DNA of 64,000 bases from Escherichia coli (GCF_003018255.1 NZ_CP027440.1); one strand, 5' to 3'; shown: positions 20,350 to 36,764, counted from the stretch's first letter. Notes: generated from the sequence alone by a model not told the origin. Numbers and translations: made by a program.

Positions 20350-20377
20350 ATTATACATACTTAACCACCGAACGCAA
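20350..20377 (-). promoter_or_regulatory. Candidate S10 operon sigma70 promoter
   Basis: Minus-strand TTGCGT - 16 nt - TATAAT read in sequence about 175 nt upstream of rpsJ. Confidence 0.65.
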
Positions 20378-20409
20378 GCGTATTGCTAGTAAAGTAAACA
20401 GCCTTCGGG

Positions 20410-20829
20410 TTATCTCTCAAGTTCGTTCAGCGCATTTTTGACACGCTCTCTTAAACCGGCTTTCTCGTCGCTTTCTTCTACAGTATTTTCTTCGTCTTCA
20501 GAAGAAGAGGGAGCATTCTCAACCGCGACGTCTGGGTCATCTTCCTCCTCGACGGATTCGACGACGGGGAGTGGCTGTTTTTTGAAGAAATAGTGTTGTG
20601 TTGATTGTTTAAAAGCGGGCGTTTCAGCCTCTACAGTGACTTCTGCTTTTACTATCCAAAGCGCCCATAGCTGCCTGGCATACCCACCAACCAACACCAT
20701 TCCTGCAAACCACAGGCAAATCAGCAATAAACAAATGACATATATTATGGTGCTGTGTTTTTGTCGGGAGAAGATACCAGGGTGACCTGTTTCTTTCTGC
20801 TCACGCGCGGCGATATAGAATTCAAACAT
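20410..20829 (-). CDS. gspB: Type II secretion accessory protein GspB
   Basis: ORF track 139 aa; single TM segment and acidic C-terminal region; immediately downstream of gspA. Confidence 0.85.
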   Translation of the reverse strand: MFEFYIAAREQKETGHPGIFSRQKHSTIIYVICLLLICLWFAGMVLVGGYARQLWALWIVKAEVTVEAETPAFKQSTQHYFFKKQPLPVVESVEEEDDPDVAVENAPSSSEDEENTVEESDEKAGLRERVKNALNELER

Positions 20830-20830
20830 G

Positions 20831-22300
20831 TCATTTCCCCTTCACTGTTGTTTCCGGGGAAATATTTGCTTCATCCCGATATAAGTAGGCACTCTCCCCT
20901 GCCACCTGCCAGAGATGTACTAACGTTGAAAAGCCAACAACACCGTCAGTTTTCAAGTGGTGGCTTTTTTGAAATTGCTTTATTTTTTCTACCAACAAGG
21001 GACGCCACTCTGCCGAAGGTTCTGTCGAAATATGCAATGCGCGGTTTAACATCGTTTCCAGCCAGAGAATCTCTTCCTCGCTGCTATCACGCGTAATGGT
21101 ACTCTCCCCTTCCGGCGACATTTTCCATAACAGAAGATAATCACCCGTCCATACCGACTCAAACCATTGATGTGTCAGCGTCCAGGTTTGCTGCCCTACG
21201 AGGACATCAACGGTAGCATCACCGACGCGAACGACCACAACAGGCAATTTTTTGTCCCCGACTTTAAGCGATGCGATCCAGGGCAAATTCTGATCTACCA
21301 ATGTTTGTAAAGAAGCATTCCCACTTTTACATGCCAGCCCCGCTCTTACTGCCTGATCGCACCAGGCCGAATCAGCTGGGACCTCGTACCCCCATACGCC
21401 GTATAACACGCTTAGCGCCTCACTATCGCGCATCACTACATGAGCAATATCCTTAGTCATATCTTGTTTAACTACTGGCGTTACGGGTACCAGCCACGCA
21501 GGAACGGGGAACGGATCTGTGAAAGAGGACAGCAGTAGCCAACCACAGGTAAGTGCGATAATGGTTCCACTCATCACCACGGCAAGCTGCATTTTCCGGG
21601 GGCGGTTATCACCTAATACGCGGTAAATCATTCGCCAATGTTTTGCAGTGAAAACGCTGGTCTGCTCGGCTTGCTGTAATAAGCTAATTGTTTCGCCGGC
21701 AAGCGCCAGCTTTCTGCGATCTCCCCGACATAATAAAGCTATCCGTTTCAGAACTCTGGCAGTTAAAAGGAGATCGGGCTGGTCAATATTCTGACCTTCA
21801 AGGATGCTTGCCTTAAGCTCGTGCTCCATCAGACGTCCTGTTGAGACAAGTTCAATGCCCTGTTTTTTAAAATCACGTTCGACTTTTCGATCGGGTCTGC
21901 CGATCAGCAAAAATTGACCGTCAGGAATAAGAGATATCGCGCGTTGGAGATCATCAAGTATGCGGCGGTGATTCAGGTGAGCATTTTCAATAATAATAAG
22001 AGGGCAGCGACTATCAGTTCGATGAAGCGCATGCAGTAATTGACCCGCCATCTCATCTCGCGTCCAGGCGCTGTCACGGCAGCCCTGTTCAGCCGCATTA
22101 TCGTCGGTAACGATCCATGCGGCCTTACCTTGCGAGGAAACAACGAGGCTTAAAGTAATCACACGGCGATGTTTATCTTTTTGTAGTTGCTGCGCCAGCC
22201 AGGTTTTTCCACTTCCAGCCTCACCCAACAAATAGCACAGACGCCAGGTCTGACGTTTCTCACGCAACCAGGAAAGAATAACTTCTCTTCTCGTAGACAT
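20831..22300 (-). CDS. gspA: Type II secretion accessory ATPase GspA
   Basis: ORF track 489 aa; Walker A GEAGSGKT near the N-terminus. Confidence 0.9.
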   Translation of the reverse strand: MSTRREVILSWLREKRQTWRLCYLLGEAGSGKTWLAQQLQKDKHRRVITLSLVVSSQGKAAWIVTDDNAAEQGCRDSAWTRDEMAGQLLHALHRTDSRCPLIIIENAHLNHRRILDDLQRAISLIPDGQFLLIGRPDRKVERDFKKQGIELVSTGRLMEHELKASILEGQNIDQPDLLLTARVLKRIALLCRGDRRKLALAGETISLLQQAEQTSVFTAKHWRMIYRVLGDNRPRKMQLAVVMSGTIIALTCGWLLLSSFTDPFPVPAWLVPVTPVVKQDMTKDIAHVVMRDSEALSVLYGVWGYEVPADSAWCDQAVRAGLACKSGNASLQTLVDQNLPWIASLKVGDKKLPVVVVRVGDATVDVLVGQQTWTLTHQWFESVWTGDYLLLWKMSPEGESTITRDSSEEEILWLETMLNRALHISTEPSAEWRPLLVEKIKQFQKSHHLKTDGVVGFSTLVHLWQVAGESAYLYRDEANISPETTVKGK

Positions 22301-22479
22301 AGAACTTCCTGTTTTAATTATTGATTATCCTTAATCATAAAAATAATGTATGCATTTATTAATTAAATACATATTACTAATATAAATAAATTTTGCTTGA
22401 TTCATGCAAGCGGCATTAATACTATTTATACTAACGTCAATATACAACCCACCCAATCTATTTTATTAGAACATACATC
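22301..22479. promoter_or_regulatory. AT-rich divergent gspA / gspC control region
   Basis: 179-bp intergenic region, by eye well over 75% A+T with A/T tracts; divergent gene starts on both sides. Confidence 0.6.
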
Positions 22480-23295
22480 GTGCCCACACTACGCTTCCCC
22501 TTCCATCTGGCGAATCATAATAAAGATGCTGCCATCAATATATTGATTATATTTATAAGCATAGGGTTGATTATTTTTAATGTGAATTATTTCCATACAA
22601 CTATAGTTAAAAATGGACAGATCATTAATCAACCAACAAACGCATTTCAGTCTGAGTTCAGCCTTGCCGCTTTATGGCGTAACGAAAATCATGCTGGGGT
22701 AAAAGATGCAAATCCCGTGGCAGTTAATCAGGAAACACCTAAGCTCTCTATAGCGCTTAATGGCATTGTACTCACATCGAATGATGAGACTTCTTTTGTC
22801 TTAATTAATGAGGGGAGCGAACAAAAGCGATACTCCCTCAACGAAGCCCTTGAGTCAGCGCCGGGAACGTTTATTAGAAAAATAAATAAAACCAGCGTTG
22901 TGTTTGAAACTCACGGGCATTACGAAAAAGTAACTCTCCATCCAGGGCTACCTGACATCATCAAGCAGCCTGATTCAGAAAGTCAAAATGTACTCGCTGA
23001 TTATATTATCGCCACGCCGATACGTGATGGAGAACAGATATACGGGCTTCGATTGAACCCTCGTAAGGGCCTCAATGCATTTACCACCAGCTTGCTACAA
23101 CCAGGGGATATCGCCCTCAGGATCAATAATCTTTCGCTGACCCACCCTGATGAGGTTTCACAGGCATTAAGTTTACTGCTAACTCAACAAAGTGCTCAGT
23201 TTACAATTCGTCGCAACGGCGTACCCCGCTTGATAAATGTTTCCGTCGCGGAACTTACAGGAATGAATGGACAGCGTCATGAAAGGACTCAATAA
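22480..23295 (+). CDS. gspC: Type II secretion protein GspC
   Basis: ORF track 271 aa; GTG start; N-terminal TM segment. Confidence 0.88.
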
Positions 23296-25231
23296 AATCA
23301 CCTGCTGCTTGCTGGCAGCACTACTCATGCCTTGTGCAGGGCACGCTGAGAACGAACAATACGGCGCTAACTTCAATAACGCCGATATCCGCCAGTTCGT
23401 GGAAATAGTGGGTCAGCATCTTGGCAAAACGATCCTGATCGACCCTTCGGTACAGGGAACCATTTCCGTACGCAGTAATGATACGTTTAGCCAACAGGAG
23501 TACTACCAGTTCTTTTTAAGTATTCTTGATCTTTACGGTTATTCCGTGATCACGCTGGACAATGGTTTTCTGAAAGTGGTGCGCTCAGCTAATGTAAAAA
23601 CATCGCCAGGGATGATTGCTGACAGTTCTCGTCCAGGCGTAGGTGATGAGTTGGTCACCCGAATCGTACCGCTTGAGAACGTTCCTGCTCGTGACCTGGC
23701 TCCCCTGCTCCGCCAGATGATGGATGCGGGTAGCGTCGGTAATGTTGTGCATTATGAACCCTCCAACGTTCTTATTCTGACCGGTCGTGCCTCCACCATT
23801 AATAAACTGATTGAAGTCATAAAGCGCGTTGATGTCATCGGCACAGAGAAGCAGCAAATTATTCATCTGGAATATGCGTCAGCGGAAGATCTCGCCGAAA
23901 TTTTGAATCAATTAATCAGCGAAAGCCACGGTAAAAGCCAGATGCCTGCCCTCCTTTCCGCGAAGATTGTGGCGGATAAGCGAACCAACTCTCTTATCAT
24001 CAGCGGGCCGGAAAAAGCACGCCAGCGCATCACTTCATTACTGAAAAGCCTTGATGTAGAAGAGAGCGAGGAAGGAAATACTCGGGTTTATTACCTGAAA
24101 TATGCTAAAGCCACGAATCTGGTGGAAGTGCTAACCGGTGTTTCCGAAAAGCTGAAAGATGAAAAAGGGAATGAGCGTAAGCCCTCCTCTTCTGGCGCGA
24201 TGGATAACGTCGCCATTACCGCCGATGAACAGACTAACTCTCTGGTCATTACCGCTGACCAGTCCGTCCAGGAAAAACTCGCCACGGTAATTGCGCGTCT
24301 GGACATTCGCCGTGCACAGGTGCTGGTTGAGGCAATCATCGTTGAAGTTCAGGATGGAAATGGACTTAACCTCGGCGTGCAATGGGCGAATAAAAACGTT
24401 GGAGCACAGCAATTTACCAATACCGGATTACCGATTTTTAACGCTGCGCAAGGTGTGGCTGATTATAAAAAGAATGGTGGGATCACCAGCGCGAATCCTG
24501 CCTGGGATATGTTTAGCGCCTACAATGGCATGGCCGCAGGCTTTTTCAATGGCGACTGGGGCGTATTGTTGACTGCGCTGGCCAGTAACAATAAAAATGA
24601 CATCCTCGCCACCCCGAGCATCGTAACGCTGGATAATAAACTCGCGTCCTTCAACGTTGGTCAGGATGTGCCGGTGCTATCTGGCTCTCAGACCACTTCT
24701 GGGGATAACGTCTTTAATACTGTCGAACGCAAAACGGTGGGCACAAAACTCAAAGTCACTCCGCAGGTCAATGAAGGCGACGCGGTACTGCTCGAAATAG
24801 AGCAGGAGGTTTCCAGCGTTGACTCTTCGTCTAATTCGACGCTCGGCCCGACATTTAACACCCGAACTATTCAAAATGCCGTGCTGGTCAAAACCGGTGA
24901 AACGGTGGTCCTGGGCGGATTGCTGGATGATTTTTCTAAAGAGCAAGTGTCAAAGGTTCCTCTGCTTGGCGATATTCCTTTAGTGGGGCAACTCTTCCGC
25001 TATACTTCGACCGAGCGCGCTAAACGCAACCTGATGGTATTTATCCGCCCAACGATTATCCGTGACGATGATGTTTATCGCTCACTGTCAAAAGAGAAAT
25101 ACACCCGCTACCGTCAGGAGCAACAACAGCGAATCGACGGGAAATCAAAAGCGCTGGTTGGCTCGGAAGATTTGCCGGTGCTGGATGAGAACACGTTCAA
25201 CAGCCATACCCCTGCGCCCTCGGCACGGTAA
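23279..25231 (+). CDS. gspD: Type II secretion outer-membrane secretin GspD
   Basis: ORF track 23267..25231; start placed at second in-frame ATG ([23 protein letters not shown], signal peptide), 650 aa; overlaps gspC 3' end. Confidence 0.9.
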
Positions 25232-25240
25232 GGCATTCTT

Positions 25241-26722
25241 ATGAGAATTCACTCACCGTACCCCGCCAGTTGGGCGCTGGCACAACGAATTGGTTATCTC
25301 TATTCAGAGGGCGAGATTATTTATCTCGCCGATACGCCATTCGAACGGTTACTCGATATTCAACGTCAGGTTGGCCAGTGCCAGACCATGACCAGCTTGT
25401 CACAGGCTGATTTTGAAGCCCGGCTGGAAGCGGTGTTCCATCAGAATACCGGTGAGTCGCAACAGATTGCGCAGGATATCGATCAATCCGTCGATCTTCT
25501 CTCGCTTTCGGAAGAGATGCCCGCAAATGAAGATCTCCTGAATGAAGATTCAGCGGCACCGGTTATCCGCTTGATCAATGCGATTTTGAGTGAGGCCATC
25601 AAAGAAACCGCCTCCGATATCCACATTGAAACCTATGAAAAAACAATGTCGATCCGTTTTCGCATCGACGGCGTTTTGCGGACAATTTTACAGCCAAACA
25701 AAAAACTGGCGGCACTGCTTATCTCCCGAATTAAGGTCATGGCTCGTCTTGATATCGCCGAAAAACGTATTCCACAGGATGGACGTATTAGTTTGCGTAT
25801 CGGGCGACGTAACATAGATGTCCGCGTATCCACACTGCCGTCCATCTATGGTGAACGCGCCGTGCTCCGTCTGCTGGATAAAAACAGCCTCCAGCTTTCA
25901 TTGAACAACCTGGGGATGACGGCAGCGGATAAACAGGATTTAGAAAATCTCATCCAGCTTCCACACGGTATTATCCTGGTGACCGGACCGACAGGCTCCG
26001 GTAAAAGCACCACGCTCTACGCCATCCTTTCGGCGCTGAATACTCCCGGCCGCAATATTCTGACGGTAGAAGATCCCGTGGAATATGAGCTGGAAGGCAT
26101 TGGGCAAACGCAGGTGAATACCCGTGTGGATATGTCTTTCGCTCGCGGCCTGCGCGCCATACTTCGCCAGGACCCGGATGTCGTCATGGTGGGGGAAATT
26201 CGTGATACAGAAACCGCGCAGATTGCGGTTCAGGCCTCGCTCACCGGCCATCTGGTACTCTCAACACTCCACACTAACAGTGCATCAGGCGCAGTGACCC
26301 GGCTCCGCGACATGGGCGTCGAATCATTCCTGCTTTCGTCTTCCCTGGCAGGGATTATCGCGCAACGTCTGGTTCGTCGCCTGTGTCCGCAATGCCGACA
26401 ATTCACGCCCGTATCACCCCAACAAGCGCAGATGTTTAAATATCATCAGCTCGCGGTGACAACAATTGGCACTCCCGTAGGCTGCCCTCATTGCCATCAA
26501 TCCGGCTATCAGGGGCGCATGGCGATCCACGAAATGATGGTGGTGACGCCGGAATTACGGGCCGCTATTCATGAAAATGTGGATGAACAAGCACTGGAGC
26601 GACTGGTCCGGCAACAACACAATGCCTTAATCAAAAATGGCCTGCAAAAAGTGATAAGCGGTGACACCTCCTGGGATGAGGTTATGCGCGTCGCCAGTGC
26701 CACGCTGGAGAACGAAGCATGA
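25241..26722 (+). CDS. gspE: Type II secretion ATPase GspE
   Basis: ORF track 493 aa; Walker [11 protein letters not shown]-terminal tetracysteine (CPQC...CPHC). Confidence 0.95.
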
Positions 26723-27915
26723 ATTATCGCTATCGCGCCATGACCCAGGATGGTCAAAAATTGCAGGGGATCATTGATGCTAACGATGAACGTCAGGCAC
26801 GACTGCGGCTGCGTGAAGAAGGGCTTTTCCTGCTGGATATTCGCCCCCAAAAAAGTTCGGGAGTAAAAACACGTCGCCCGAGGATCAGCCATAGTGAACT
26901 GACGCTTTTCACCCGGCAGTTGGCAACCTTAAGCGCAGCGGCATTACCTCTGGAAGAGAGCCTTGCCGTAATCGGTCAACAAAGCAGTAATAAACGACTG
27001 GCTGATGTGTTAAATCAGGTACGCAGCGCCATCCTTGAAGGGCATCCCCTTTCCGATGCGTTACAACATTTTCCCACGCTTTTCGATTCGCTCTACCGTA
27101 CCCTGGTTAAAGCGGGCGAAAAGAGCGGGCTGCTGGCCCCGGTGTTGGAAAAACTGGCTGATTACAATGAAAATCGGCAGAAAATCCGCAGCAAACTCAT
27201 TCAGTCGCTGATCTACCCCTGCATGCTGACTGCGGTGGCGATTGTGGTCGTGATTATTCTCCTCACTGCTGTCGTGCCCAAAATTACCGAACAGTTCGTG
27301 CATATGAAGCAGCAACTGCCGCTGAGTACACGCATTCTTTTAGGTCTGAGCGACACGTTGCAACATACCGGCCCGACATTACTAGCGACAGTGTTTATTG
27401 TCGCTGTAGGTTTCTGGCTCTGGTTAAAACGCGGCAATAACCGCCACCGTTTTCATGCCATGTTGCTGCGCGTTGCACTCATCGGCCCGCTGATTTGCGC
27501 CATTAACAGCGCACGCTATCTCCGCACTTTAAGTATTTTGCAATCCAGCGGCGTCCCTCTGCTGGATGGGATGAATTTGTCCACCGAAAGTCTCAGCAAC
27601 CTCGAAATCCGCCAGCGTCTGGCAAATGCGGCAGAAAACGTTCGGCAGGGTAACAGCATTCATCTTTCGCTGGAACAAACGGCAATCTTCCCGCCGATGA
27701 TGCTCTACATGGTGGCCTCTGGCGAAAAAAGCGGGCAGCTCGGCACGTTAATGGTCAGAGCAGCAGATAACCAGGAGACACTCCAACAAAATCGGATCGC
27801 CTTAACGCTCTCCATCTTCGAGCCAGCACTCATTATTACGATGGCACTGATCGTCCTGTTTATTGTCGTCTCGGTACTCCAACCTCTTCTTCAACTTAAC
27901 TCAATGATTAATTAA
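26719..27915 (+). CDS. gspF: Type II secretion inner-membrane platform protein GspF
   Basis: ORF track 398 aa; 4-nt overlap with gspE. Confidence 0.93.
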
Positions 27916-27924
27916 GGAAAGTAT

Positions 27925-28362: not shown

Positions 28363-28369
28363 GTCAGCG

Positions 28370-28879: not shown

Positions 28880-29253
28880 ACAAACAATCAGGGATGACAC
28901 TGCTTGAAGTCTTACTGGCGATGAGTATTTTCGCCACTGTTGCGCTGGCTTTAATGAGCAGCATGCAAGGGCAACGAAATGCCATCGAGCGGATGCGTAA
29001 TGAGACGCTGGCGCTGTGGATCGCAGATAACCAGCTTAAGTCGCAAGATACATTCAACGATGAAAACACGTCCAGTTCAGGCAAAGAGATAATTAATGGC
29101 GAAGAGTGGAACTGGCGCAGCGATGTCCATTCAAGCAAAGACGGCACGCTTCTGGAACGCACCATAACGGTGACGTTACCCAACGGTCAGAAAACCGCTC
29201 TGACTCGTTATCAGAGCATCCATGATAGATCCGGGCAGGCGCAAGATGATTAA
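28876..29253 (+). CDS. gspI: Minor pseudopilin GspI
   Basis: ORF track 28837..29253; start set to ATG 28876 ([12 protein letters not shown]...), overlapping gspH stop as ATGA. Confidence 0.9.
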
Positions 29254-29833
29254 TCGCCAACAGGGTTTCACATTGCTGGAAGTCATGGCGGCACTGGCGA
29301 TCTTCTCAATGCTTGGCGTGCTGGCGTTTATGGTTTTTTCGCAAGCGTCTACGCTACATCAACGCTCACAGAAAGAAATCCAGCAGTTCAATCAACTGCA
29401 ACGCACCATCACCATTCTTGATAACGATCTCCTGCAACTGGTCGCTCGCCGAAATCGGAGTACGGATAAAATCATGGTGTTGGGTGAAGAGGCTATTTTT
29501 ACCACGCAAAGTCGCGATCCGCAGGCCCCGCTCAATGAAGCGCAAACCTTACAAACGGTTCACTGGTATCTGCGAAATCATACGCTTTACCGTGCTGTTC
29601 GTACTTCTGTGGATGGCAGGAAGGATCAACCTGCCCAGGCGATGCTGGAACATGTCGAGAGCTTTCTTCTGGAAAGTAACAGCGGGGAAAGCAAAGAACA
29701 TCCTCTCTCAGTCACGCTACATCTGAAGACTCAGCAATATGGGGCACTACAGCGTCGTTTTGCATTACCTGAGCAATTAGCAAGAGAAGAGTCGCCAGCC
29801 CAGACTCAGGCCGGGAATAATAACCATGAATAA
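29246..29833 (+). CDS. gspJ: Minor pseudopilin GspJ
   Basis: ORF track 29222..29833; start set to ATG 29246 ([13 protein letters not shown]...). Confidence 0.9.
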
Positions 29834-30809
29834 TGAACAACGCGGCGTCGCGCTGCTCATTGTATTGATGCTACTGGCGCTCATGGCTGCACTGGCAGCA
29901 GACATGACGAGCAGTTTTCACGGCCAGCTTCAGCGAACCCGCCAGGTAAACCATCATCTGCAACGGCAATATGATATTGAACTGGCGGAGAAACTTGCGC
30001 TTGCCAGCCTCACCCAGGACGTTAAAGATAACGACAGACAGACCACGTTGCAGCAGTACTGGGCACAGCCGCAACAGTTGCAGCTGGAAGATGGCAATAC
30101 AGTGAAGTGGCAGTTACGCGATGCCCAGCACTGTTTTAATCTCAATGCGTTAGCAAAAATCTCTGACGATCCGCTGGCTTCCCCCGATTTCCCCGCCCAG
30201 GTATTCAGTGCGCTGCTGATTAACGCCGGTATCGATCGCGGAAACACCGATGAGATCGTGCAATCAATTGCTGACTATATTGATGTCGATGACTCACCAC
30301 GCTTTCACGGCGCAGAAGATAACTTTTACCAAAGCCAGACGCCGCCCCGGCATAGTGCCAATCAGATGCTTTTTCTGACCGGCGAATTGCGTCAGATAAA
30401 AGGCATAACCGAAAACATCTATCAGCGGCTTATCCCGTATGTCTGCGTTCTCCCAACCACGGAACTTAGCATCAATCTTAATATGCTTACGGAGAACGAT
30501 ATTCCGCTCTTCAGAGCGTTATTCCTCAATAACATCACGGATGCTGACGCTCGGGTCTTATTACAAAAAAGGCCCAGGGAAGGCTGGCTAACCACGGATG
30601 CATTTCTTTACTGGGCGCAGCAGGATTTCTCCGGCGTGAAGCCTCTGGTAGCTCAGGTGAAAGGGCATCTCTTTCCCTATAGCCGCTATTTTACGCTGAG
30701 TACGGAAAGTATCAGCGACGAACAATCCCAGGGATGGCAAAGCCATATTTTCTTCAACCGTAAACAGCAGAGCGCCCAAATCTATCGGCGTACGCTGCAA
30801 CTCTACTAA
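29826..30809 (+). CDS. gspK: Minor pseudopilin GspK
   Basis: ORF track 327 aa. Confidence 0.9.
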   Translation: MNNEQRGVALLIVLMLLALMAALAADMTSSFHGQLQRTRQVNHHLQRQYDIELAEKLALASLTQDVKDNDRQTTLQQYWAQPQQLQLEDGNTVKWQLRDAQHCFNLNALAKISDDPLASPDFPAQVFSALLINAGIDRGNTDEIVQSIADYIDVDDSPRFHGAEDNFYQSQTPPRHSANQMLFLTGELRQIKGITENIYQRLIPYVCVLPTTELSINLNMLTENDIPLFRALFLNNITDADARVLLQKRPREGWLTTDAFLYWAQQDFSGVKPLVAQVKGHLFPYSRYFTLSTESISDEQSQGWQSHIFFNRKQQSAQIYRRTLQLY

Positions 30810-30820
30810 TCATAAGGATC

Positions 30821-31987
30821 GTGATGCCTGAATCGTTGATGGTCATACGTTCTTCCTCGACGCTGCGTAAGCATTGGGAATGGATGACGTTCTCCGCAGA
30901 TAGCGTATCTTCGGTACATACGCCCACGGACGATCTTCCGCTGGAGTCGCTGGCCGATCAGCCCGGTGCCGGAAATGTTCATCTTTTGATCCCACCAGAG
31001 GGCCTTTTATATCGTTCCCTCACGCTGCCCAACGCCAAATACAAACTCACCGCACAAACATTGCAATGGCTGGCAGAGGAGACGTTACCCGACAACACCC
31101 AGGACTGGCACTGGACGGTTGTCGATAAACAAAACGAAAGTGTCGAGGTGATAGGCATTCAGTCGGAGAAACTCAGTCGCTATCTTGAGCGTTTACATAC
31201 TGCCGGACTCAACGTGACGCGGGTTTTGCCAGATGGCTGCTATCTTCCCTGGGAAGTAGATAGCTGGACTCTGGTTAACCAGCAAACAAGCTGGCTTATT
31301 CGCAGTGCCGCACATGCCTTCAATGAACTGGATGAACACTGGTTACAGCATCTTGCTGCCCAGTTTCCGCCTGAGAATATGCGTTGTTATGGTGTGGCAC
31401 CTCACGGCGTTGCAGCGACCAATCCACTTATCCAGCATCCTGAAATACCATCACTGAGTTTGTATTCTGCCGATATTGCATTCCAGCGCTATGACATGCT
31501 GCATGGTGTTTTTCGTAAACAGAAAACTGTAAGCAAATCGGGAAAATGGCTCGCCCGCCTGGCAGTAAGCTGTCTCGTTCTCGCCATTCTTTCTTTTGTT
31601 GGCAGCCGGGGCATCGCGCTCTGGCAAACGCTTAAGATTGAAGATCAACTTCAGCATCAACAGCAAGAAACCTGGCAACGTTATTTCCCGCAGATCAAAC
31701 GCACCCACAACTTTCGTTTTTACTTTAAGCAGCAACTCGCTCAGCAATATCCTGAAGCTGTGCCGTTGCTCTATCATTTACAAACACTTCTGCTGGAACA
31801 CCCTGAACTGCAGTTAATGGAGGCGAACTATAGCCAGAAGCAAAAGTCGCTGACCTTAAAAATGAGTGCTAAGAGTGAAGCCAATATCGATCGTTTCTGT
31901 GAATTAACACAGTCCTGGCTTCCGATGCAAAAAACAGAAAAAGATCCGGTCAGTGGTGTATGGACAGTAAGGAGCTCAGGGAAATGA
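30821..31987 (+). CDS. gspL: Type II secretion inner-membrane protein GspL
   Basis: ORF track 388 aa; start could be the second ATG at 30824. Confidence 0.88.
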   Translation: MMPESLMVIRSSSTLRKHWEWMTFSADSVSSVHTPTDDLPLESLADQPGAGNVHLLIPPEGLLYRSLTLPNAKYKLTAQTLQWLAEETLPDNTQDWHWTVVDKQNESVEVIGIQSEKLSRYLERLHTAGLNVTRVLPDGCYLPWEVDSWTLVNQQTSWLIRSAAHAFNELDEHWLQHLAAQFPPENMRCYGVAPHGVAATNPLIQHPEIPSLSLYSADIAFQRYDMLHGVFRKQKTVSKSGKWLARLAVSCLVLAILSFVGSRGIALWQTLKIEDQLQHQQQETWQRYFPQIKRTHNFRFYFKQQLAQQYPEAVPLLYHLQTLLLEHPELQLMEANYSQKQKSLTLKMSAKSEANIDRFCELTQSWLPMQKTEKDPVSGVWTVRSSGK

Positions 31988-32445
31988 TTAAATCATGGTG
32001 GGCAGAAAAATCCACATCGGAAAAACAGCTCGTTGCGGCGCTGGCGGTTCTCTCGCTCGGCGTTTTTTGTTGGCTTGGGGTGATAAAACCGATAGATACC
32101 TACATTGCAGAGCATCAGTCCCACGCGCAAAAAATTAAGAAGGACATCAAATGGATGCAGGATCAAGCGAGCACCCATGGTTTACTCGGTCATCCTGCGC
32201 TTACGCAGCCCATCAAAAATATCCTTCTCGAGGAAGCAAAACGTGAGAATTTGGCTATCACGCTGGAAAACGGTCCGGACAATACTCTGACAATTCATCC
32301 TGTCACAGCTCCCCTCGAAAACGTCTCCCGCTGGCTCACTACGGCACAGATTACATACGGTATTGTTATTGAAGACCTTCAGTTTACTCTTGCCGGAAAC
32401 GAACAGATCACCCTCAAGCATTTGTCCTTCAGGGAGCAACCATAA
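31984..32445 (+). CDS. gspM: Type II secretion inner-membrane protein GspM
   Basis: ORF track 31960..32445; start set to ATG 31984 (MIKSWWAEKS...), overlapping gspL stop. Confidence 0.88.
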   Translation: MIKSWWAEKSTSEKQLVAALAVLSLGVFCWLGVIKPIDTYIAEHQSHAQKIKKDIKWMQDQASTHGLLGHPALTQPIKNILLEEAKRENLAITLENGPDNTLTIHPVTAPLENVSRWLTTAQITYGIVIEDLQFTLAGNEQITLKHLSFREQP

Positions 32446-33122
32446 TGACAATGCTACTGCCGCTCTTCATTCTGGTTGGTTTTATTGCAGGTTATTTTGT
32501 TAATGCCATGGCCTATCACCTCTCGCCGTTGGAGGATAAAACGGCGTTAACGTTTCGCCAGGTATTGGTTCATTTCAGGCAAAAAAAATATGCCTGGCAT
32601 GATACAGTGCCCCTGATACTTTGCGTTGCTGCTGCTATCGCCTGCGCCCTGGCACCTTTCACGCCCATCGTGACTGGCGCACTCTTTCTCTATTTCTGTT
32701 TCGCACTCACGCTCAGTGTTATTGATTTTCGCACTCAGCTCCTGCCCGACAAACTCACCTTACCGCTGCTCTGGCTTGGCTTGGTATTTAATGCGCAGTC
32801 TGGATTAATTGATTTACATGATGCGGTTTATGGCGCGGTAGCTGGCTATGGGGTGCTGTGGTGTGTTTACTGGGGCGTCTGGTTAGTTTGTCACAAAGAG
32901 GGATTGGGCTACGGTGATTTCAAGCTACTGGCCGCTGCAGGCGCGTGGTGTGGCTGGCAAACGTTGCCAATGATACTGCTAATTGCCTCACTGGGTGGCA
33001 TTGGTTACGCCATCGTTTCACAACTTCTGCAACGCCGGACTATAACCACTATCGCATTCGGCCCGTGGCTTGCGCTCGGCAGCATGATAAACCTGGGGTA
33101 TCTGGCCTGGATCTCGTATTAA
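32445..33122 (+). CDS. gspO: Prepilin peptidase / N-methyltransferase GspO
   Basis: ORF track 225 aa; polytopic membrane protein. Confidence 0.92.
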   Translation: MTMLLPLFILVGFIAGYFVNAMAYHLSPLEDKTALTFRQVLVHFRQKKYAWHDTVPLILCVAAAIACALAPFTPIVTGALFLYFCFALTLSVIDFRTQLLPDKLTLPLLWLGLVFNAQSGLIDLHDAVYGAVAGYGVLWCVYWGVWLVCHKEGLGYGDFKLLAAAGAWCGWQTLPMILLIASLGGIGYAIVSQLLQRRTITTIAFGPWLALGSMINLGYLAWISY

Positions 33123-33150
33123 CCGGGAGGGTTCTCCCTCCCGACACGGC

Positions 33151-33627
33151 TCAACTTTCTTCGCGGATCTGTGCTTGCAGATAATTTTGCAGGCCCATCT
33201 TCTGAATCAGATCAAGTTCCGTTTCCAGCCAGTCGATATGGCCTTCTTCATCACGCAAAATTTCTATCATCATATCGCGGCTGACGTAATCATGAACGCT
33301 ATCGGCATAACCAATTGCCTCACGCAAATTCTTCGCGCCATCCAGCTCAAGTGCCAGATCAGAACGCAGCATTTCCTCAACATCCTCACCAATGTTCAGT
33401 TTGCCCAGGTCCTGTAAATTTGGAAGACCTTCCAGAAAAAGAATGCGCTCAATATAACGATCGGCGTGTTTCATCTCATCAATGGATTCATGATACTCCA
33501 CATCATTGAGACGTTTGAGACCCCAGTTTTTAAACATCCGGGCATGGAGAAAGTACTGATTGATTGCGACAAGCTCATTTCCCAACAGTTTGTTGAGATA
33601 ATTTATAACCTTAGTATCACCTTTCAT
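33151..33627 (-). CDS. bfr: Bacterioferritin
   Basis: ORF track 158 aa; [37 protein letters not shown]... Confidence 0.97.
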
Positions 33628-33698
33628 TTTTTGACTCCTTCGCTTCCACTCTTTGAAGCGTAGAACGGCTTACGAGTAAGTCAAAAAACACACTCCGT

Positions 33699-33893
33699 TT
33701 ATGCGGACTCCTTAAACTCCGGCAACTGCATTAATTCATCCTCCATCACTTCACGCGCGGCCCGGACACATTTACCGCACTGATTGCCGACCGGAATAAA
33801 TTTTTTTAATTGCTGGAACGAGTGAGGGGAAAACTGGCGCACAGCCTGACGAATTTTTTTATCGCTGATACCATTACAAAGACAAACGTACAT
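33699..33893 (-). CDS. bfd: Bacterioferritin-associated [2Fe-2S] ferredoxin
   Basis: ORF track 64 aa; four Cys (C4, C6, C39, C42 pattern MYVCLCNG...CGKC). Confidence 0.93.
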   Translation of the reverse strand: MYVCLCNGISDKKIRQAVRQFSPHSFQQLKKFIPVGNQCGKCVRAAREVMEDELMQLPEFKESA

Positions 33894-33920
33894 AGAGACT
33901 CCCGTATACTTTCTTCAAAA

Positions 33921-33950
33921 ATAAATGAAAATAGTTCTTATTTCAATTAC
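33921..33950 (-). promoter_or_regulatory. Putative Fur-box-like A/T-rich site upstream of bfd
   Basis: Minus strand gtaattgaaataagaactattttcattt about 30-60 nt upstream of bfd start; resembles the A/T-rich hexamer-repeat Fur consensus. Eye match only. Confidence 0.3.
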
Positions 33951-34023
33951 GGAAAGACTCTTTTTTAAGCAAAGAATAGAAATATGAATAAAAATAATGG
34001 GCTACCAAAAGTAGCCCATTGAC

Positions 34024-34054
34024 AAAAAATGCGGCGATACCGGAAGGTATCGCC
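34024..34054 (-). terminator. Rho-independent terminator after chiA
   Basis: Hairpin ggcgatacc-ggaa-ggtatcgcc followed on minus strand by a 6-nt U-run, 8 nt after chiA stop. Confidence 0.7.
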
Positions 34055-34061
34055 AACACAT

Positions 34062-36764
34062 TTATTGCTTAGTAAACGGCGCGAAGATTTCGCTAAATGC
34101 GTACTTCGGTGCCTGTTCTTTAGTCAGGCCGTGGAATTCCGGAGACAGGTTAGTGCCGCCTGGCAGGTCGCGCGCGATTGACCAGATACCAACCATACCG
34201 AGATTACGCTTCTGCGCATCCTGCATGACCAGACGAGCATCAGAGAGATAGAACACCTCGCCCTGAACGTCGTTCACGCCAACCATCGGCGTGGTACCCA
34301 TCATAGCGTCAATTTCTGCATCGCTCTTATTGGGATGGAGGCCTTTCAATTGTGAATGCAGGTTGGCAATCGCAGACGTTGCACACTTACCGTGAATGTT
34401 CTGGCCTTCGGTATTTGCAGACTGACAAATCGCGTTACCGTAGTCCATTGTCATCACGTTCACACCCGCCAGCTCAACACCTTTCGCTTTGGCATCGCTC
34501 AGGACATTCATCCCTTCCGGCGTCAGGCCAGTCGGCAGAATTGGCAAGGTGTACCAGATAGCAATATCTTTGCCCTCTGACTTCCATTTATCCTGCACTT
34601 TCTTCACAGCAAGGTTACGACGTTCAATAGATGCCTGATCCGCAACCCAGGTGCCTTCGATATCGAAGTCCAGGACTCTGAGGTTCAGGTTATCAACGAT
34701 GTCATAATAATGCTGCATCAGATCGTCTACGTTCTTACAGGAAGCAGCCAGCGGAGCGTTGTTAGCACCACCGATAGACAGCATCACATCGCCGCCAGCT
34801 TCACGCAGAGCTTTGATTTTGCTGTACTGAGCGTAATTCTGCATACCGTAAGCGGTACCCCATGTCGGCAGACAGGTGTTCGCATCTTTACTCACCACAA
34901 ACGCCAGCGTGAAGTGGTTGACGTTATGATTCTTAGCCAGCGCAGCCAGATCCGGGATCGTATTCAGCGTAAAGTCAACATACGGTGCATAAACGTGTTT
35001 CGGCCACGCTTTCTTCGGCGTACCTACACGTTCTTTGGTTCCGGTCCAGTCAACAAAAACACGCCACGGGTTGCTGTCAGAAGGAGAAACTTTCTGCACT
35101 TTACTCTGAGAAATGTAGTTCGCACCGTTAAAGCGAATCAGCGTATCGCTGGCATAAAGCGTTTCTGGATTAAACTGCGGCGCATTATTCAGCTCTTCGT
35201 TGCTATAGCTCTGAGCCTTACCTAACGGCTTCCACGGGCGGCTATTGCTACCGGTGGCGTTTTGGTTCGCAACCAGAGCAGGGTTGTCGCTTTGCGTCCA
35301 GAACAGCGCTTCATAAGCCTGCCCATCAACAACAACGCGATCACCTTTCACGTACACGGTGGAAGCGGACCATGCTTTCGCCGGTTCGTATTTCTTCCAC
35401 GGGTTATCGCCGCCCGGGACAAAGCCCCATGCGTCTTGATCGACAGAGGTTTTATAATGTGCATCGTTATAATCTACGATGCTGTTCGCGCTGTACGCTT
35501 TGCTGGCCTGGAAACCATCCGCAACAATGACGCCGCCATTATCAATTTCACAGGTAGTTGGGTTACCGTACTGACTCATTTCCGCAGCGGTAGCTGTACG
35601 CACGAGACGCCATGGGTTATTGGAGTTTTCTGCACTAGTGCCACGTGGGCAATCTTCAGAACCAACCCACCAGGCATTCTGATAAACATTACCATTGAAG
35701 ATAACATGGTAAATTTCGCTACCTTCCTGGCCACTCCACGCCTGCAGTGAGTAATCGTTACTGCTATCCGCTGGTGTTGATGGCTCGTTATTATCCGGAG
35801 TAGGAGTAACTGGAGTTACCGGTGTTTCCGGAGTTGGATCAACCGGAGTCACAGCACCGCTATTATTATCCGGCTTAACGGAACAGGAACCCGGATTACC
35901 ATACTGGCTGATTTCTGTTGCCGTTGCCGCGCGAACATAACGCCATGGGTTGCTGGCATCGTTTTCTTTCGCATCGCCTGGGCAATTTGCCGCGCCTACC
36001 CACCAGGCGTTCTTATAAATGCCGCCGTTGTAGATAACGTACCATGTAGAAGAACCTTCCTGACCTTTCCAGGCTACGACAGCATAGTTGTCGTTTGACT
36101 TATCAGCTGGAGCTGGCTGAACATCAGGAGCCGGTTTAACGTCCGGTGCCGGTTTCACATCCGGCGCAGGCTGTGGTGCTGAAGTACAGGACTGTGGATT
36201 ACTGGTTTCTGAGATTTCCGTTGCCGTAGCGGCACGAACATAACGCCATGGGTTGCTGGCATCATTGCCTTTCGCATCACCCGGGCAGTTAGAAGAGGCT
36301 ACCCACCAGGCATTTTTATATACCGCACCATTAAAGACGACATACCAGGTCTGACCGCCCTGCTGTTTATTCCAGGCAACTACAGAAGAATTAGACGGAA
36401 CAGTGCCCTGTGCTGGTGTAGCCGAACCGCCATTAGCCGGCGTATTGGATGCAGGCGTATTTGAATTTGAAGAAGATGAGCTGCCGCTCTTTTCGCAGGA
36501 AAGTGTATTGCCAAACTGACTAATTTCAGCAGCTGTCGCGGTACGCTTTAAACGCCATGGGTTAGTTGCATCATTTGCTTTTGCTTTTCCCGGGCAATTT
36601 GTAGAAGAAACCCACCAGGCATTTTCATAAATTTTGCCATCGAAAATAACCTGATATTTATTACCACCTTGTTGGTTATTCCATACTTCCATTGCCAATG
36701 CTGGCAGAGCGGAACACACCAGCCCCATACCAATCATAGATTTAGTAAATATATTTAATTTCAT
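34062..36764 (-). CDS. chiA: Periplasmic/secreted endochitinase with four N-terminal chitin-binding-type modules
   Basis: ORF track 900 aa; signal peptide; four repeated ~65-aa W/C-rich modules (NAWWV...CPG...NPWR), Pro/Thr linkers, C-terminal catalytic domain. Confidence 0.92.
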   Translation of the reverse strand: MKLNIFTKSMIGMGLVCSALPALAMEVWNNQQGGNKYQVIFDGKIYENAWWVSSTNCPGKAKANDATNPWRLKRTATAAEISQFGNTLSCEKSGSSSSSNSNTPASNTPANGGSATPAQGTVPSNSSVVAWNKQQGGQTWYVVFNGAVYKNAWWVASSNCPGDAKGNDASNPWRYVRAATATEISETSNPQSCTSAPQPAPDVKPAPDVKPAPDVQPAPADKSNDNYAVVAWKGQEGSSTWYVIYNGGIYKNAWWVGAANCPGDAKENDASNPWRYVRAATATEISQYGNPGSCSVKPDNNSGAVTPVDPTPETPVTPVTPTPDNNEPSTPADSSNDYSLQAWSGQEGSEIYHVIFNGNVYQNAWWVGSEDCPRGTSAENSNNPWRLVRTATAAEMSQYGNPTTCEIDNGGVIVADGFQASKAYSANSIVDYNDAHYKTSVDQDAWGFVPGGDNPWKKYEPAKAWSASTVYVKGDRVVVDGQAYEALFWTQSDNPALVANQNATGSNSRPWKPLGKAQSYSNEELNNAPQFNPETLYASDTLIRFNGANYISQSKVQKVSPSDSNPWRVFVDWTGTKERVGTPKKAWPKHVYAPYVDFTLNTIPDLAALAKNHNVNHFTLAFVVSKDANTCLPTWGTAYGMQNYAQYSKIKALREAGGDVMLSIGGANNAPLAASCKNVDDLMQHYYDIVDNLNLRVLDFDIEGTWVADQASIERRNLAVKKVQDKWKSEGKDIAIWYTLPILPTGLTPEGMNVLSDAKAKGVELAGVNVMTMDYGNAICQSANTEGQNIHGKCATSAIANLHSQLKGLHPNKSDAEIDAMMGTTPMVGVNDVQGEVFYLSDARLVMQDAQKRNLGMVGIWSIARDLPGGTNLSPEFHGLTKEQAPKYAFSEIFAPFTKQ
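35549..36689 (-). repeat. Intragenic tandem module repeats in chiA (~310-bp period) plus PAPDVK x3 micro-repeat
   Basis: Near-identical DNA stretches, e.g. gcgaacataacgccatgggttgctggcatc at ~35925 and gcacgaacataacgccatgggttgctggcatc at ~36235; PAPDVKPAPDVKPAPDV encoded at ~36115-36170. Confidence 0.8.

Follow-up and report, generated by a model that had tools for sequence, protein, structure and literature searches.

What is a block of secretion, iron-storage and chitinase genes doing between the S10 operon and tufA, two pillars of the translation machinery, and how did it come to lie there? We examined this question in a stretch of 64,000 nucleotides from Escherichia coli (GCF_003018255.1 NZ_CP027440.1), hereafter the window. 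The first part of the answer is ordinary and already published: the block is the known E. coli T2SS-alpha/ChiA locus, comprising a type II secretion system (T2SS) and an exported chitinase, which is normally silenced. The less familiar point concerns its history, in that E. coli has two alternative versions of the whole interval, iron-storage genes included, both of them very old, and the window carries one of the two.

The genes follow each other in the order rpsJ, gspB-gspA, gspC-D-E-F-G-H-I-J-K-L-M-O, bfr-bfd, chiA, tufA, with all ORFs of the block intact (Table 1). In a 100%-identical record (NZ_AP027254.1) RefSeq names these genes gspB, gspA, gspC-M, gspO, bfr, bfd, chiA and tuf, and the NCBIfam and Pfam models are consistent with these names. 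An initial sequence-only reading had described a T2SS in two divergent units, a bacterioferritin pair and a large modular chitinase, spanning 16.9 kb and representing known biology and not a new system; ORF positions, annotation and domain models bear out this description in gene content, order, strands, coordinates and extent (16,884 bp from the tufA stop at 37056 to the rpsJ start at 20172), the core set of the secretion system being complete. Strain JNE120442 matches the window with 100% identity and K-12 with 97.7%.

Table 1. Features of the rpsJ-tufA interval, with positions counted from the first letter of the window
Feature	Position	Strand	Basis
rpsJ (S10), first gene of S10 operon; left flank, outside cassette	19861..20172	-	NF001861 170.6 bits; RefSeq; long- and short-haplotype copies 100% identical
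S10 leader and putative S10 promoter	20173..20377	-	promoter read from sequence: -10 TATAAT 20350-20355, 16-nt spacer, -35 TTGCGT 20372-20377
exchangeable cassette, 16,647 bp	20357..37003	.	delimited against short haplotype (1,532 bp in O55:H7 DEC5B)
gspB	20410..20829	-	NF007250 286.9 bits, cutoff 180; RefSeq
gspA (AAA_22 ATPase, GspA C39-like and peptidoglycan-binding domains)	20831..22300	-	Pfam PF13401, PF21327, PF01471; RefSeq
divergent gspA/gspC promoter region, 179 bp, 23.5% GC	22301..22479	.	GC scan; most AT-rich of 17 window gaps
gspC	22480..23295	+	TIGR01713 291.1 bits, cutoff 101.6
gspD, secretin (RefSeq start; longest ORF from 23267)	23279..25231	+	TIGR02517 649.2 bits, cutoff 351.35, full length; RefSeq
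gspE, ATPase (cytoplasmic)	25241..26722	+	TIGR02533 656.4 bits, cutoff 630.25
gspF, inner-membrane platform	26719..27915	+	TIGR02120 547.9 bits, cutoff 424
gspG, major pseudopilin	27925..28362	+	TIGR01710 184.1 bits, cutoff 88.9
gspH, minor pseudopilin	28370..28879	+	TIGR01708 168.5 bits, cutoff 80
gspI, minor pseudopilin; locally hypervariable, 90.9% to K-12	28876..29253	+	TIGR01707 131.7 bits, above cutoff
gspJ, minor pseudopilin; locally hypervariable, 92.4% to K-12	29246..29833	+	TIGR01711 63.5 bits; RefSeq GspJ
gspK, minor pseudopilin	29826..30809	+	NF037980 252.8 bits, cutoff 130
gspL	30824..31987	+	TIGR01709 149.7 bits, cutoff 65
gspM	31984..32445	+	Pfam T2SSM E=5.7e-37
gspO, prepilin peptidase, 225 aa, A24 family	32445..33122	+	Pfam Peptidase_A24 E=2.4e-30; RefSeq
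bfr, bacterioferritin, long-haplotype allele	33151..33627	-	TIGR00754 279.8 bits
bfd, bacterioferritin-associated ferredoxin, long-haplotype allele	33699..33893	-	RefSeq (identical record)
bfd upstream region and two terminator-like hairpins after chiA (34055-34032, 34020-33996), 33.3% GC	33894..34061	-	terminator scan, gap GC
chiA, 900 aa	34062..36764	-	Pfam GH18 and CBM_5_12; solved chitinase domain matches
chiA promoter region, 26.0% GC across 36765-36995	36765..37003	-	GC scan; literature on K-12
tufA intrinsic terminator hairpin	37005..37032	-	strongest terminator-like site in scan; long/short homology resumes there
tufA (EF-Tu); right flank, outside cassette	37056..38240	-	TIGR00485 792.8 bits; RefSeq

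The T2SS core, GspC-M together with GspO, was detected in its entirety with curated models (NCBIfam/Pfam). GspJ lies 1.3 bits under the TIGR01711 cutoff of 64.85 and carries both the prepilin domain TIGR02532 and the RefSeq name GspJ, while a 48-nt repeat found by repeat scan in gspG, gspH and gspJ corresponds to the shared prepilin N-terminal motif. The pilotin GspS and GspN are accessory T2SS parts that are not universal. Neither was found among the block ORFs of at least 80 aa, all of which are assigned otherwise, so that the designation 'complete' applies to the core set only. The putative substrate, ChiA, combines a Sec-type signal peptide (N-terminus MKLNIFTKSMIGMGLVCSALPALA, judged by eye), four N-terminal repeats of ~105 aa sharing an NAWWV...CPG motif and visible as DNA repeats at 35577-36701, CBM5/12 modules (Pfam CBM_5_12, E=1.5e-7) and a C-terminal GH18 domain. 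The latter is recognised by Pfam PF00704 over residues 612-808 (E=1e-9) and by solved chitinase domains over residues ~587-898 (9buf, E=1.9e-46; 2dsk, E=6.6e-38), and retains the DxDxE acid motif as DFDIE (...LDFDIEG...). For Bfd, the Fer2_BFD domain is precomputed for the short-form orthologue.

Compositionally the block is ordinary, with 49.1% GC overall against 50.2% and 52.1% in the flanks. In codon adaptation (CAI) the gsp genes score low, at 0.34-0.49 where ordinary genes of the right flank have a median of ~0.54, and chiA does not, and hence the comparison of windowed GC and codon usage proposed at the outset sets apart only the gsp genes by their CAI and not the block as a whole. The distinct signal resides in the spacers. 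Against a window mean of 50.6% GC and a first percentile of 33.8% for 200-bp windows, the gspA-gspC and chiA promoter regions rank with the most AT-rich DNA of the whole window, and of its 17 non-coding gaps measuring 100 bp or more the gspA-gspC spacer has the highest AT content. Of the three transcription-unit boundaries that had been called markedly AT-rich these two stand, whereas the rpsJ-gspB spacer (20173-20409), which contains the S10 promoter and leader, has 45.6% GC, lower than the window mean by roughly one standard deviation. A further AT-rich patch, missing from that first description, lies at 33801-33950 between chiA and bfd (31.5-34.5% GC).

AT-rich promoter regions of this kind are what is found at H-NS-silenced loci, and the assignment of the gsp operon as H-NS-silenced, with ChiA as its substrate, matches the K-12 literature (PMC5797941, PMC11390585, PMC3032704), in which H-NS repression and Gsp-dependent secretion of ChiA are both described (also PMC3707838); Francetic et al. 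2000 is the source that the first three of these papers cite for both points, and we rely on it as cited there. In K-12 the 179-bp gspA-gspC intergenic region binds SlyA and the chiA promoter region is H-NS-silenced (PMC5797941). By analogy with K-12, transcription of gspAB, gspC-O and chiA would begin in the two extremely AT-rich regions and remain silenced by H-NS in laboratory culture, a silencing that SlyA-type factors might counter. Once produced, ChiA would enter the periplasm by virtue of its Sec signal peptide and would then be moved across the outer membrane by the Gsp machine, likely built from the GspD secretin, the GspE ATPase, a GspC/F/L/M platform and a GspG-K pseudopilus matured by GspO, with GspA and GspB forming a peptidoglycan-binding inner-membrane pair that probably aids secretin assembly.

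The organisation of the interval across the species provides the key to its history. Among 5,426 complete E. coli genomes the long form is present in 2,953 (54%), and 2,252 (41.5%) carry instead a short form of 1.5 kb containing an orphan prepilin peptidase, bfr and bfd. The split is clean, intermediate bfr-bfd identity being found in only seven genomes; in addition, ~200 genomes combine long-type bfr-bfd with less than 80% of the block, and the long-form variants seen include IS or ars insertions and a split gspD. Breakpoints between the two forms, determined by blastn and junction alignment, fall at 20356/20357, inside the S10 promoter spacer, and at 37003/37004, at the tufA terminator. Identity is 99.8% up to the first and 98% from the second, and between them only bfr-bfd aligns (77%). 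The divergence of these two genes is striking: taken together they are ~78% identical between haplotypes (bfr 79% in nucleotides and 90% in amino acids, bfd 76.7% in nucleotides) with a saturated dS of ~1.7 (1.72 for bfr), while the flanks exceed 99% and dS in rpsJ, rplC, tufA and fusA is 0.00-0.03. The notion of bfr-bfd as an independent passenger or as resident genes does not survive this comparison. What is inherited as a unit is the whole interval from the S10 promoter to the tufA terminator, bfr-bfd included, of which two deeply diverged alleles exist in E. coli, one of 16.6 kb and one of 1.5 kb. The earlier statement that close relatives carry only bfd-bfr here is accordingly incomplete, since 41.5% of the complete E. 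coli genomes are themselves without the block and have an orphan peptidase beside bfr-bfd.

Nor are more distant relatives limited to bfd-bfr. When, as the sequence-only reading had suggested, the interval was compared across Enterobacterales, 13 of the 80 loci from other species had a gsp operon in the same slot, 18 to 29 an orphan peptidase only and 32 nothing. Between bfd and tufA a GH18 chitinase was present at 7 of the 12 loci with gsp and at none of the 47 without it; the chitinases beside bfd are of two unrelated types. This co-occurrence suggests that the substrate link between ChiA and Gsp extends beyond E. coli. We constructed neighbour-joining trees from 660 nt of bfd+bfr and 1,260 nt of fusA, in which synonymous sites are saturated. 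In the former, Citrobacter is the partner of the short allele at 97% bootstrap and the metagenome-assembled genome (MAG) UBA5654 that of the long allele at 97-100%, and no bootstrap replicate (0%) joins the two E. coli alleles as sisters; a larger clade uniting all chitinase-plus-gsp cassettes receives only 44-47%. The tree of fusA, a gene ~1 kb away in which the E. coli haplotypes share 99.4% identity, recovers them as a monophyletic group in every replicate (100%).

Taken jointly, these observations are in all probability best explained by a T2SS-alpha locus with its substrate gene that takes part in an interval-wide exchange of two alleles. Replacement probably proceeded by homologous recombination in the near-invariant flanking translation genes with no mobile element, and the long form most likely derives from another Enterobacteriaceae lineage, acquired before the lineages of this strain and K-12 split. 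The view that any acquisition must be old is supported by dS between window and K-12 within the block (0.01-0.12), which equals that of ordinary flanking genes. The nearest relative of the long cassette outside E. coli is too distant to point to a donor (bfr 82% in nucleotides, GspD 84% in amino acids), and because the 80 loci were sampled without E. albertii, E. fergusonii, Salmonella and the cryptic Escherichia clades, the direction of replacement is one that we infer.

The opposite direction, with the long gsp-chiA cassette original in Escherichia and the short form imported from a Citrobacter-like relative by recombination in the flanks, is the most serious alternative, although we regard it as distinctly the less probable. 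The grouping of the short bfd-bfr allele with Citrobacter would fit, as would the deep diversity of both haplotypes within the species (97.1-97.7% identity among long forms, 96.7-97.1% among short forms), which means that neither is obviously recent. Yet the ~85% nucleotide identity of the short allele to Citrobacter is what vertical descent predicts (fusA 91.7%, bfr dS 1.1), whereas none of the sampled genera holds a close relative of the long allele, which falls among the cassettes of Yokenella, Trabulsiella, Enterobacter, Kosakonia and Chimaeribacter, a position where Escherichia would not be expected. It is a good deal less likely still that both haplotypes predate the species as a trans-species polymorphism, neither being imported and both kept by balancing or niche-dependent selection on the secretion system. 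The intermediate frequencies and within-species diversity of the two forms, the association of the block with mastitis isolates and mammary-gland fitness (PMC11390585) and with lineage-wide gene avoidance patterns (PMC8715431), and a similar split by cassette type in Kosakonia and Enterobacter all speak for such maintenance. However, bfr dS between haplotypes exceeds that between E. coli and Citrobacter, and consequently the polymorphism would have to predate the genus and outlast many speciations with the flanks fully homogenised; the phylogroup distribution (A long, B1 short; PMC3032704) also fits a few recombination events.

A further question is whether the cassette still serves a function. 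The window and K-12 form one collinear alignment of 49.9 kb with 98.3% identity, in which orthology and synteny of gspAB, gspC-O, bfr, bfd and chiA between rpsJ and tufA are confirmed by alignment and RefSeq annotation, a K-12 derivative included, and the block genes are each 97-99% identical, with gspI and gspJ lower. All 17 ORFs are intact and of K-12 length except ChiA (900 versus 897 aa), and dN/dS ranges from 0.03 to 0.6 and is mostly below 0.2. The gspA-gspC and bfd-chiA spacers are each 99.4% identical, exceeding the adjacent coding DNA, and the chiA-tufA spacer at 97.25% is no higher than chiA. Intact ORFs and low dN/dS indicate that the function of the block is maintained. That the locus is instead a cryptic relic without present function, its silence reflecting ongoing pseudogenisation, is very improbable: silence in laboratory K-12 (PMC5797941), the low gsp CAI and the incomplete or interrupted blocks of some genomes could be read in this way, but the intact reading frames under constraint and the conserved promoter spacers argue against it, as do the transcripts detected in vivo in uropathogenic E. 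coli (UPEC; PMC4128348) and the reduced adherence of mastitis strains on deletion of chiA (PMC11390585). Least credible of all is the reading published for strain W and phylogroup B1 (PMC3032704), by which the block is ancestral, bfr-bfd are resident and the short form arose by a gspO-rpsJ deletion, for although a truncated peptidase gene still adjoins bfr in the short form and Enterobacteriaceae RIT693 does resemble a true deletion derivative (a 158-aa remnant 54% identical to the window GspO and grouping with it), this candidate is contradicted by the breakpoints, by the bfr-bfd divergence between flanks differing by less than 1%, by the clean split, by a short-form peptidase that is 41% identical to the window GspO and belongs to its own orphan-peptidase clade with Citrobacter, Silvania, Kluyvera and Pluralibacter, and by the lack of chiA, which lies across bfr-bfd and cannot be removed by a single gspO-rpsJ deletion.

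The closest known system is T2SS-alpha of K-12 (gspAB, gspC-O, chiA/yheB; Francetic and Pugsley 1996 and Francetic et al. 2000, as cited in PMC5797941, PMC3032704 and PMC3707838), which has the same genes, order, strands and spacer lengths. The window differs only as an allelic variant, in the length of ChiA and in gspI/gspJ, which are 91-92% identical against ~98% elsewhere. In other genera, gsp operons occupy the bfr-rpsJ slot in Citrobacter braakii, C. amalonaticus, Enterobacter sichuanensis, Yokenella, Trabulsiella, Chimaeribacter, Rahnella and MAG UBA5654. They share with the window their position and orientation beside bfr and the gene order, read from gspO back as far as gspD or gspC in 10-kb flanks that do not take in the gspAB side, and in many of them a GH18 chitinase fills the bfd-tufA slot. 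Their proteins, however, are divergent (GspE 62-79%, GspD 64-84%, GspL 26-53% and GspO 39-55% identical), and two of these loci have an unrelated ChiD-like GH18 enzyme and no ChiA orthologue. Aeromonas ExeAB and Vibrio EpsAB constitute a secretin-assembly pair. A pair of this type is mentioned in PMC10841016, and the window GspA, with its AAA-type ATPase and peptidoglycan-binding domains, resembles ExeA-like proteins and has a small GspB partner, such that GspAB may stand in for the absent pilotin. E. coli T2SS-beta (yghJ/sslE-pppA-yghG-gspC-M) is likewise a strain-variable T2SS (PMC3707838, PMC3032704), but it occupies another locus, exports LT and SslE, and has a secretin of the Vibrio type, the pilotin YghG/AspS for that secretin and a peptidase of its own, PppA; it is absent from the 64-kb window. 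With classical genomic and pathogenicity islands the block has in common its strain variability, its AT-rich promoters silenced by H-NS and its association with pathogenic isolates (PMC11390585). Unlike them it has no integrase or transposase (ORFs of at least 80 aa, each accounted for, and RefSeq annotation), as the initial reading had rightly stated, no tRNA gene in a tRNA scan, no IS, no match to an Rfam family and no convincing direct or inverted flanking repeats of the att kind, matches at the boundaries being at chance level, and its GC content is genome-like. By integrase, tRNA/att, repeats and composition it is therefore not a mobile genomic island, and whereas such islands alternate with an empty site, the alternative to this block is another allele of the same interval.

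The interval between rpsJ and tufA is occupied in this chromosome by a block of 16.6 kb (the long form), and an ORF map of 19000-39000 bore out the gene order proposed from the sequence alone (table). When 20100-37100 was compared by megablast with 5,426 complete genomes of E. coli, strain JNE120442 matched at 100% and K-12 derivatives at 97.7%, and the gene names in the RefSeq annotation of the 100%-identical record are exactly those of the ORF map. GspB, C, D, E, F, G, H, I, K and L, Bfr, EF-Tu and S10 all scored above the cutoffs of curated NCBIfam models, GspJ reached 63.5 bits against an NCBIfam cutoff of 64.85, and GspM and GspO matched Pfam T2SSM and Peptidase_A24, respectively. No pilotin or GspN gene was found in the block.

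Features of the window and of compared loci (L-numbers), with positions in the sequence named
Feature	Sequence	Position	Strand	Basis or remark
rpsJ	window	19861-20172	minus	ORF map; NCBIfam S10
gspB	window	20410-20829	minus	ORF map; NCBIfam
gspA	window	20831-22300	minus	ORF map; Pfam AAA_22, GspA_C39-like, PG_binding_1
gspC to gspO, twelve genes	window	22480-33122	plus	ORF map; NCBIfam/Pfam
bfr	window	33151-33627	minus	ORF map; NCBIfam
bfd	window	33699-33893	minus	ORF map; RefSeq names of identical record
chiA	window	34062-36764	minus	ORF map; Pfam GH18 + CBM_5_12
tufA	window	37056-38240	minus	ORF map; NCBIfam EF-Tu
orphan peptidase gene	L002, E. coli O55:H7 short haplotype	2952-3419		equivalents in L011, L013, L017, L018, L026, L034, L038 and others
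large ChiD-like GH18 gene	L004, Yokenella regensburgei	516-3182		FDGLDVDWE motif; no significant BLASTP similarity to window ChiA
large ChiD-like GH18 gene	L077, Rahnella perminowiae	18-2336		bfd-tufA slot beside gsp operon
truncated long form	L091, GCA_001260975.1	1-5342		IS21-family element and arsR, arsB, arsC replace all beyond truncated gspA
split gspD	L087, GCA_052286795.1	938-2894		ORFs of 89 aa and 582 aa

In E. coli this block is one of two alternative occupants of the interval. At least 80% of it is present in 2,953 of the 5,426 complete genomes (54%), and in about 2,256 genomes the megablast matches, of 80-90% identity, cover just 4-7% of the query. In O55:H7 DEC5B the order is rpsJ, a gene for a 155-aa prepilin peptidase, bfr, bfd and tuf, and a search of the same genomes with this 1,532-bp interval identified the short form in 2,252 (41.5%) and a bfr-bfd match alone, at about 78%, in a further 3,155, with just 7 intermediate between the forms. 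These seven, H41 (NZ_CP148423.1) among them, have 80-95% identity to the short cassette and could hold a hybrid or a third allele of bfr-bfd. The junctions are precise: the two forms are 99.8% identical up to window position 20356 and 98% identical from 37004 on, and between these points bfr-bfd alone can be aligned, at 77%. On the left the forms part within the putative S10 promoter, of which the -10 element TATAAT (20350-20355) is common to both, the 16-nt spacer differs and the -35 element TTGCGT (20372-20377) survives as an island in the alignment. On the right the break coincides with the hairpin of the tufA terminator (37005-37032), at its first base.

The lack of the system in strains such as W has been read as 'a gspO-rpsJ deletion' (PMC3032704). 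The short form cannot have originated in this way, since bfr has a saturated dS of 1.72 between the forms, with a dN of 0.093 and 90% identity of the protein, as against dS values of 0.000-0.027 for rpsJ, rplC, tufA and fusA; for bfd, dS lies beyond computation. The bfr-bfd difference is one of deep divergence under purifying selection and not of fast evolution, which leaves no room for the published deletion. Strains without the system are not deletion mutants of the K-12 arrangement; their whole interval is a separate allele of great age. A related question is raised by a mastitis pan-genome association, in which bfr and bfd were accessory, with the same strain proportions as gsp/chiA, 0.812 vs 0.375 (PMC11390585). 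These two genes would appear accessory because alleles of 78% identity are split by clustering and then tag the gsp/chiA haplotype, and the fitness link reported for them is probably an artefact of linkage rather than a matter of iron biology.

The short-form peptidase is 41% identical to GspO, is without its first ~72 residues and keeps both active-site motifs (LLPD and GxGD). In many Enterobacteriaceae the stretch from bfr to rpsJ holds a predicted orphan A24 prepilin peptidase gene, N-terminally short and encoding 155-194 aa; these genes too keep both catalytic Asp motifs and are annotated in RefSeq as intact coding sequences. The orphan enzymes from E. coli, Citrobacter, Silvania, Kluyvera, Pluralibacter and others belong together in a separate, fast-evolving clade, with 50-60% identity among genera and ~35% to any full-length GspO, so that the short form, too, is old. 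An origin of the short-form peptidase as a remnant of a Citrobacter-type gsp operon can be rejected, its identity to those GspO proteins being likewise ~35%. A locus from Enterobacteriaceae bacterium RIT693 (L008, 999-1439) encodes a 158-aa peptidase remnant, 54% identical to window GspO and grouping with it, and its bfr groups with gsp-bearing cassettes; this locus may genuinely derive from a long-type cassette by deletion. The remnant ends at nearly the same point of the peptidase as does the unrelated orphan clade.

Outside E. coli the interval was compared in 80 Enterobacterales loci, one genome per species, obtained by a Bfr-anchored scan and typed by tblastn with the window proteins; an exact-RpsJ lookup gave E. 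coli-type contexts alone. The earlier statement that close relatives carry only bfd-bfr agrees with 32 loci that are empty on the bfr-rpsJ side (e.g. Xenorhabdus, Photorhabdus, Proteus, Providencia, Pantoea, Erwinia and Serratia), but not with the 13 that hold a gsp operon there, nor with the 18 that hold a peptidase gene only, or 29 if 11 more with a peptidase gene on a contig ending before rpsJ are counted; six further loci could not be classed on this side. Salmonella LT2 presumably has the short arrangement with the peptidase gene. The gsp operons are those of Citrobacter braakii, C. amalonaticus S646, Enterobacter sichuanensis, Yokenella, two Trabulsiella, two Chimaeribacter, three Rahnella, the metagenome-assembled genome (MAG) UBA5654 and an E. 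coli-like MAG, and in other genera they are very divergent from that of the window (GspE 62-79% and GspL 26-53% identical).

On the opposite, bfd-tufA side, a ChiA-like gene is found in E. sichuanensis, both Trabulsiella, UBA5654, the E. coli-like MAG and Kosakonia oryziphila, and a ChiD-like GH18 chitinase unrelated to ChiA in Yokenella and Rahnella perminowiae (Pfam GH18 E=9e-76 in the latter). Two loci from other Rahnella species (L072, L073) have gsp and no chitinase in this slot. A chitinase lies beside bfd in 7 of 12 gsp loci and in none of the 47 loci without a gsp operon that show the bfd-tufA side (Fisher p=2.3e-6, uncorrected for phylogeny); counting genera once, the figures are 5/8 vs 0/35 (p=5.8e-5, again uncorrected for phylogeny). 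The association supports, by comparison and independently of K-12 genetics, a secretion-plus-substrate module in which chitinases would be the cognate cargo of this gsp operon family. In Providencia (L041, L050) the ~1.4-kb tufA-bfd gap holds a gene for an SDR-family oxidoreductase, so that in Morganellaceae the slot hosts unrelated cargo.

The histories of cassette and flank are discordant. Neighbour joining on bfd+bfr (660 nt, 300 bootstraps) places the short allele of E. coli with five species of Citrobacter (97% bootstrap, 76% on codon positions 1+2) and the window allele with UBA5654 (97-100%), and the two E. coli alleles are sisters in 0% of bootstraps; Kosakonia and Enterobacter are split by cassette type too (0% monophyly). 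In fusA, of which the 3' 1,260 nt were compared across these loci, the two haplotypes of E. coli share 99.4% identity and form a clade in 100% of bootstraps, and UBA5654, at 91.9% identity to E. coli, is no closer than Citrobacter (91.7%). In Chimaeribacter (L005, L045; Yersiniaceae by name) bfd-bfr is ~80% identical to Enterobacter-type cassettes and 69-70% to Serratia/Rahnella, which suggests that the cassette may have crossed family boundaries as well, but the clade of all chitinase-plus-gsp cassettes and Chimaeribacter was recovered with weak bootstrap support (44-47%).

We infer that homologous recombination in the flanks, which hardly vary, brought about the replacement and that the long form probably came into Escherichia from a different lineage of Enterobacteriaceae, a direction proposed on the 80 loci sampled, which do not include E. 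albertii, E. fergusonii, Salmonella or the cryptic clades. In the broader reading that we propose, the Enterobacterales rpsJ-tufA interval would be a recombination 'swap slot': with translation genes that are nearly invariant on either side, it would let genera exchange entire cassettes by homologous recombination without a mobile element, and such a cassette can comprise a gsp operon together with the chitinase that it secretes and bfd-bfr alleles of its own. Taken jointly with two pre-genus cassettes in E. coli (at 54% and 41.5%), an erroneous 'deletion' in the literature and, as a side effect, the mis-scoring of bfr and bfd as accessory in pan-genome studies, this proposal has in our estimation an even chance of being correct. 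The interval would then be a clean example of large accessory modules moving via recombination in ultra-conserved flanks. Whole-interval allelic replacement was not found described in the literature searched; it refines the evolutionary picture modestly and does not amount to a new type of system, and the practical value of these results is modest too.

Composition says little on foreign origin, because both the GC content of the block (49.1%, similar to its surroundings) and its GC3 are ordinary. The sequence-only reading had described all three transcription-unit boundaries as AT-rich, which holds for two only: the gspA-gspC spacer (22301-22479, 179 bp) has 23.5% GC and the region upstream of chiA 26%, against a window mean of 50.6%, but the rpsJ-gspB spacer has 45.6%. 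The window has 17 non-coding gaps of 100 bp or more, and of these the gspA-gspC spacer is the most AT-rich and the bfd-chiA spacer the second. The proposed comparison of codon adaptation, made with the window's ribosomal and elongation-factor genes as reference set and genuine right-flank genes only as comparison (0.45-0.72, median ~0.54), gave low values for the fourteen gsp genes (0.34-0.49, median ~0.44) but not for chiA (0.62) or bfr (0.52). The expected absence of mobility genes was confirmed, with no integrase or transposase ORF; the tRNA scan found no tRNA in the block, and no Rfam family, the S10 leader model included, passed gathering thresholds in 19000-38500. A repeat search found no boundary repeats; the sole pair that touches both edges, of 20 nt (20224-20243 / 36690-36709) and with a 75-85% match to a third copy, is taken as chance. 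A sigma-70 consensus scan, which gave 18 sites vs 20.2 expected from shuffled sequence and missed the S10 promoter, is not used as evidence.

Between the window and K-12 the block is 97-99% identical (dS 0.01-0.12, with gspI/gspJ as outliers), much like the ordinary flanks (dS 0.01-0.19), and therefore the long form predates the split of these two lineages. All 17 ORFs have the same length as in K-12 except ChiA, which is three codons longer (900 vs 897 aa), and dN/dS is mostly <0.2, with a maximum of 0.6 in gspC, where dS is tiny. Purifying selection on the block is weaker than on its housekeeping neighbours, if clearly present. Within 28876-29833, the minor-pseudopilin genes gspI and gspJ are 90.9% and 92.4% identical to K-12 (dS 0.26 and 0.29), the adjoining gsp genes being 97-99% identical (dS 0.03-0.12). 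A small patch acquired by recombination from a long-type allele of greater divergence would fit this pattern, as would a locally hypervariable pseudopilus tip. The gspA-gspC and bfd-chiA (33894-34061) spacers are 99.4% identical to K-12 and the adjoining coding DNA 97-98%, which suggests a constraint on silencing and regulatory DNA; the chiA-tufA spacer (97.25%) is not better conserved than its coding neighbours. About 200 genomes have long-type bfr-bfd but <80% of the block. Disrupted copies include H17 (NZ_CP101010.1), with a deletion from gspB to the 5' part of gspD, and H14, with IS insertions in the long cassette; in H30 (O111:H8) an IS91 adjoins the short cassette.

ChiA itself begins with a predicted Sec-type signal peptide followed by four diverged repeats of ~105 aa, and its C-terminal domain, which has the DFDIE acid motif, can be aligned with the catalytic domains of solved chitinases (9buf, E=1.9e-46). 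The 5' part of chiA (35577-36701) contains four diverged tandem modules, each ~180 nt and 303-333 nt apart, which encode the N-terminal repeat domains (motif NAWWV...CPG...NPWR) with Ser/Pro/Thr-rich linkers; one such module matched Yersinia entomophaga Chi2 (chain 6ogd_C).

The initial verdict of known biology was right, as the gsp/ChiA locus had already been described (PMC5797941, PMC3707838): apart from two factual slips it correctly recognised a known system, and in itself it adds nothing to the knowledge of T2SS-alpha and ChiA. The K-12 gsp locus is 'cryptic' and repressed by H-NS, ChiA is the substrate of its secretion system and chiA is likewise H-NS-silenced, and the 179-bp gspA-gspC spacer is bound by SlyA, gspC-F transcripts being raised (PMC5797941). 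In E. coli pan-genomes gsp and chiA constitute a lineage-associated accessory module (PMC8715431); the genes are expressed in vivo in uropathogenic isolates (PMC4128348) and enriched in mastitis isolates, adherence being lowered by chiA deletion (PMC11390585). The name T2SS-alpha sets this system apart from T2SS-beta, the substrates of which are LT and SslE, in contrast to ChiA for T2SS-alpha (PMC3707838).
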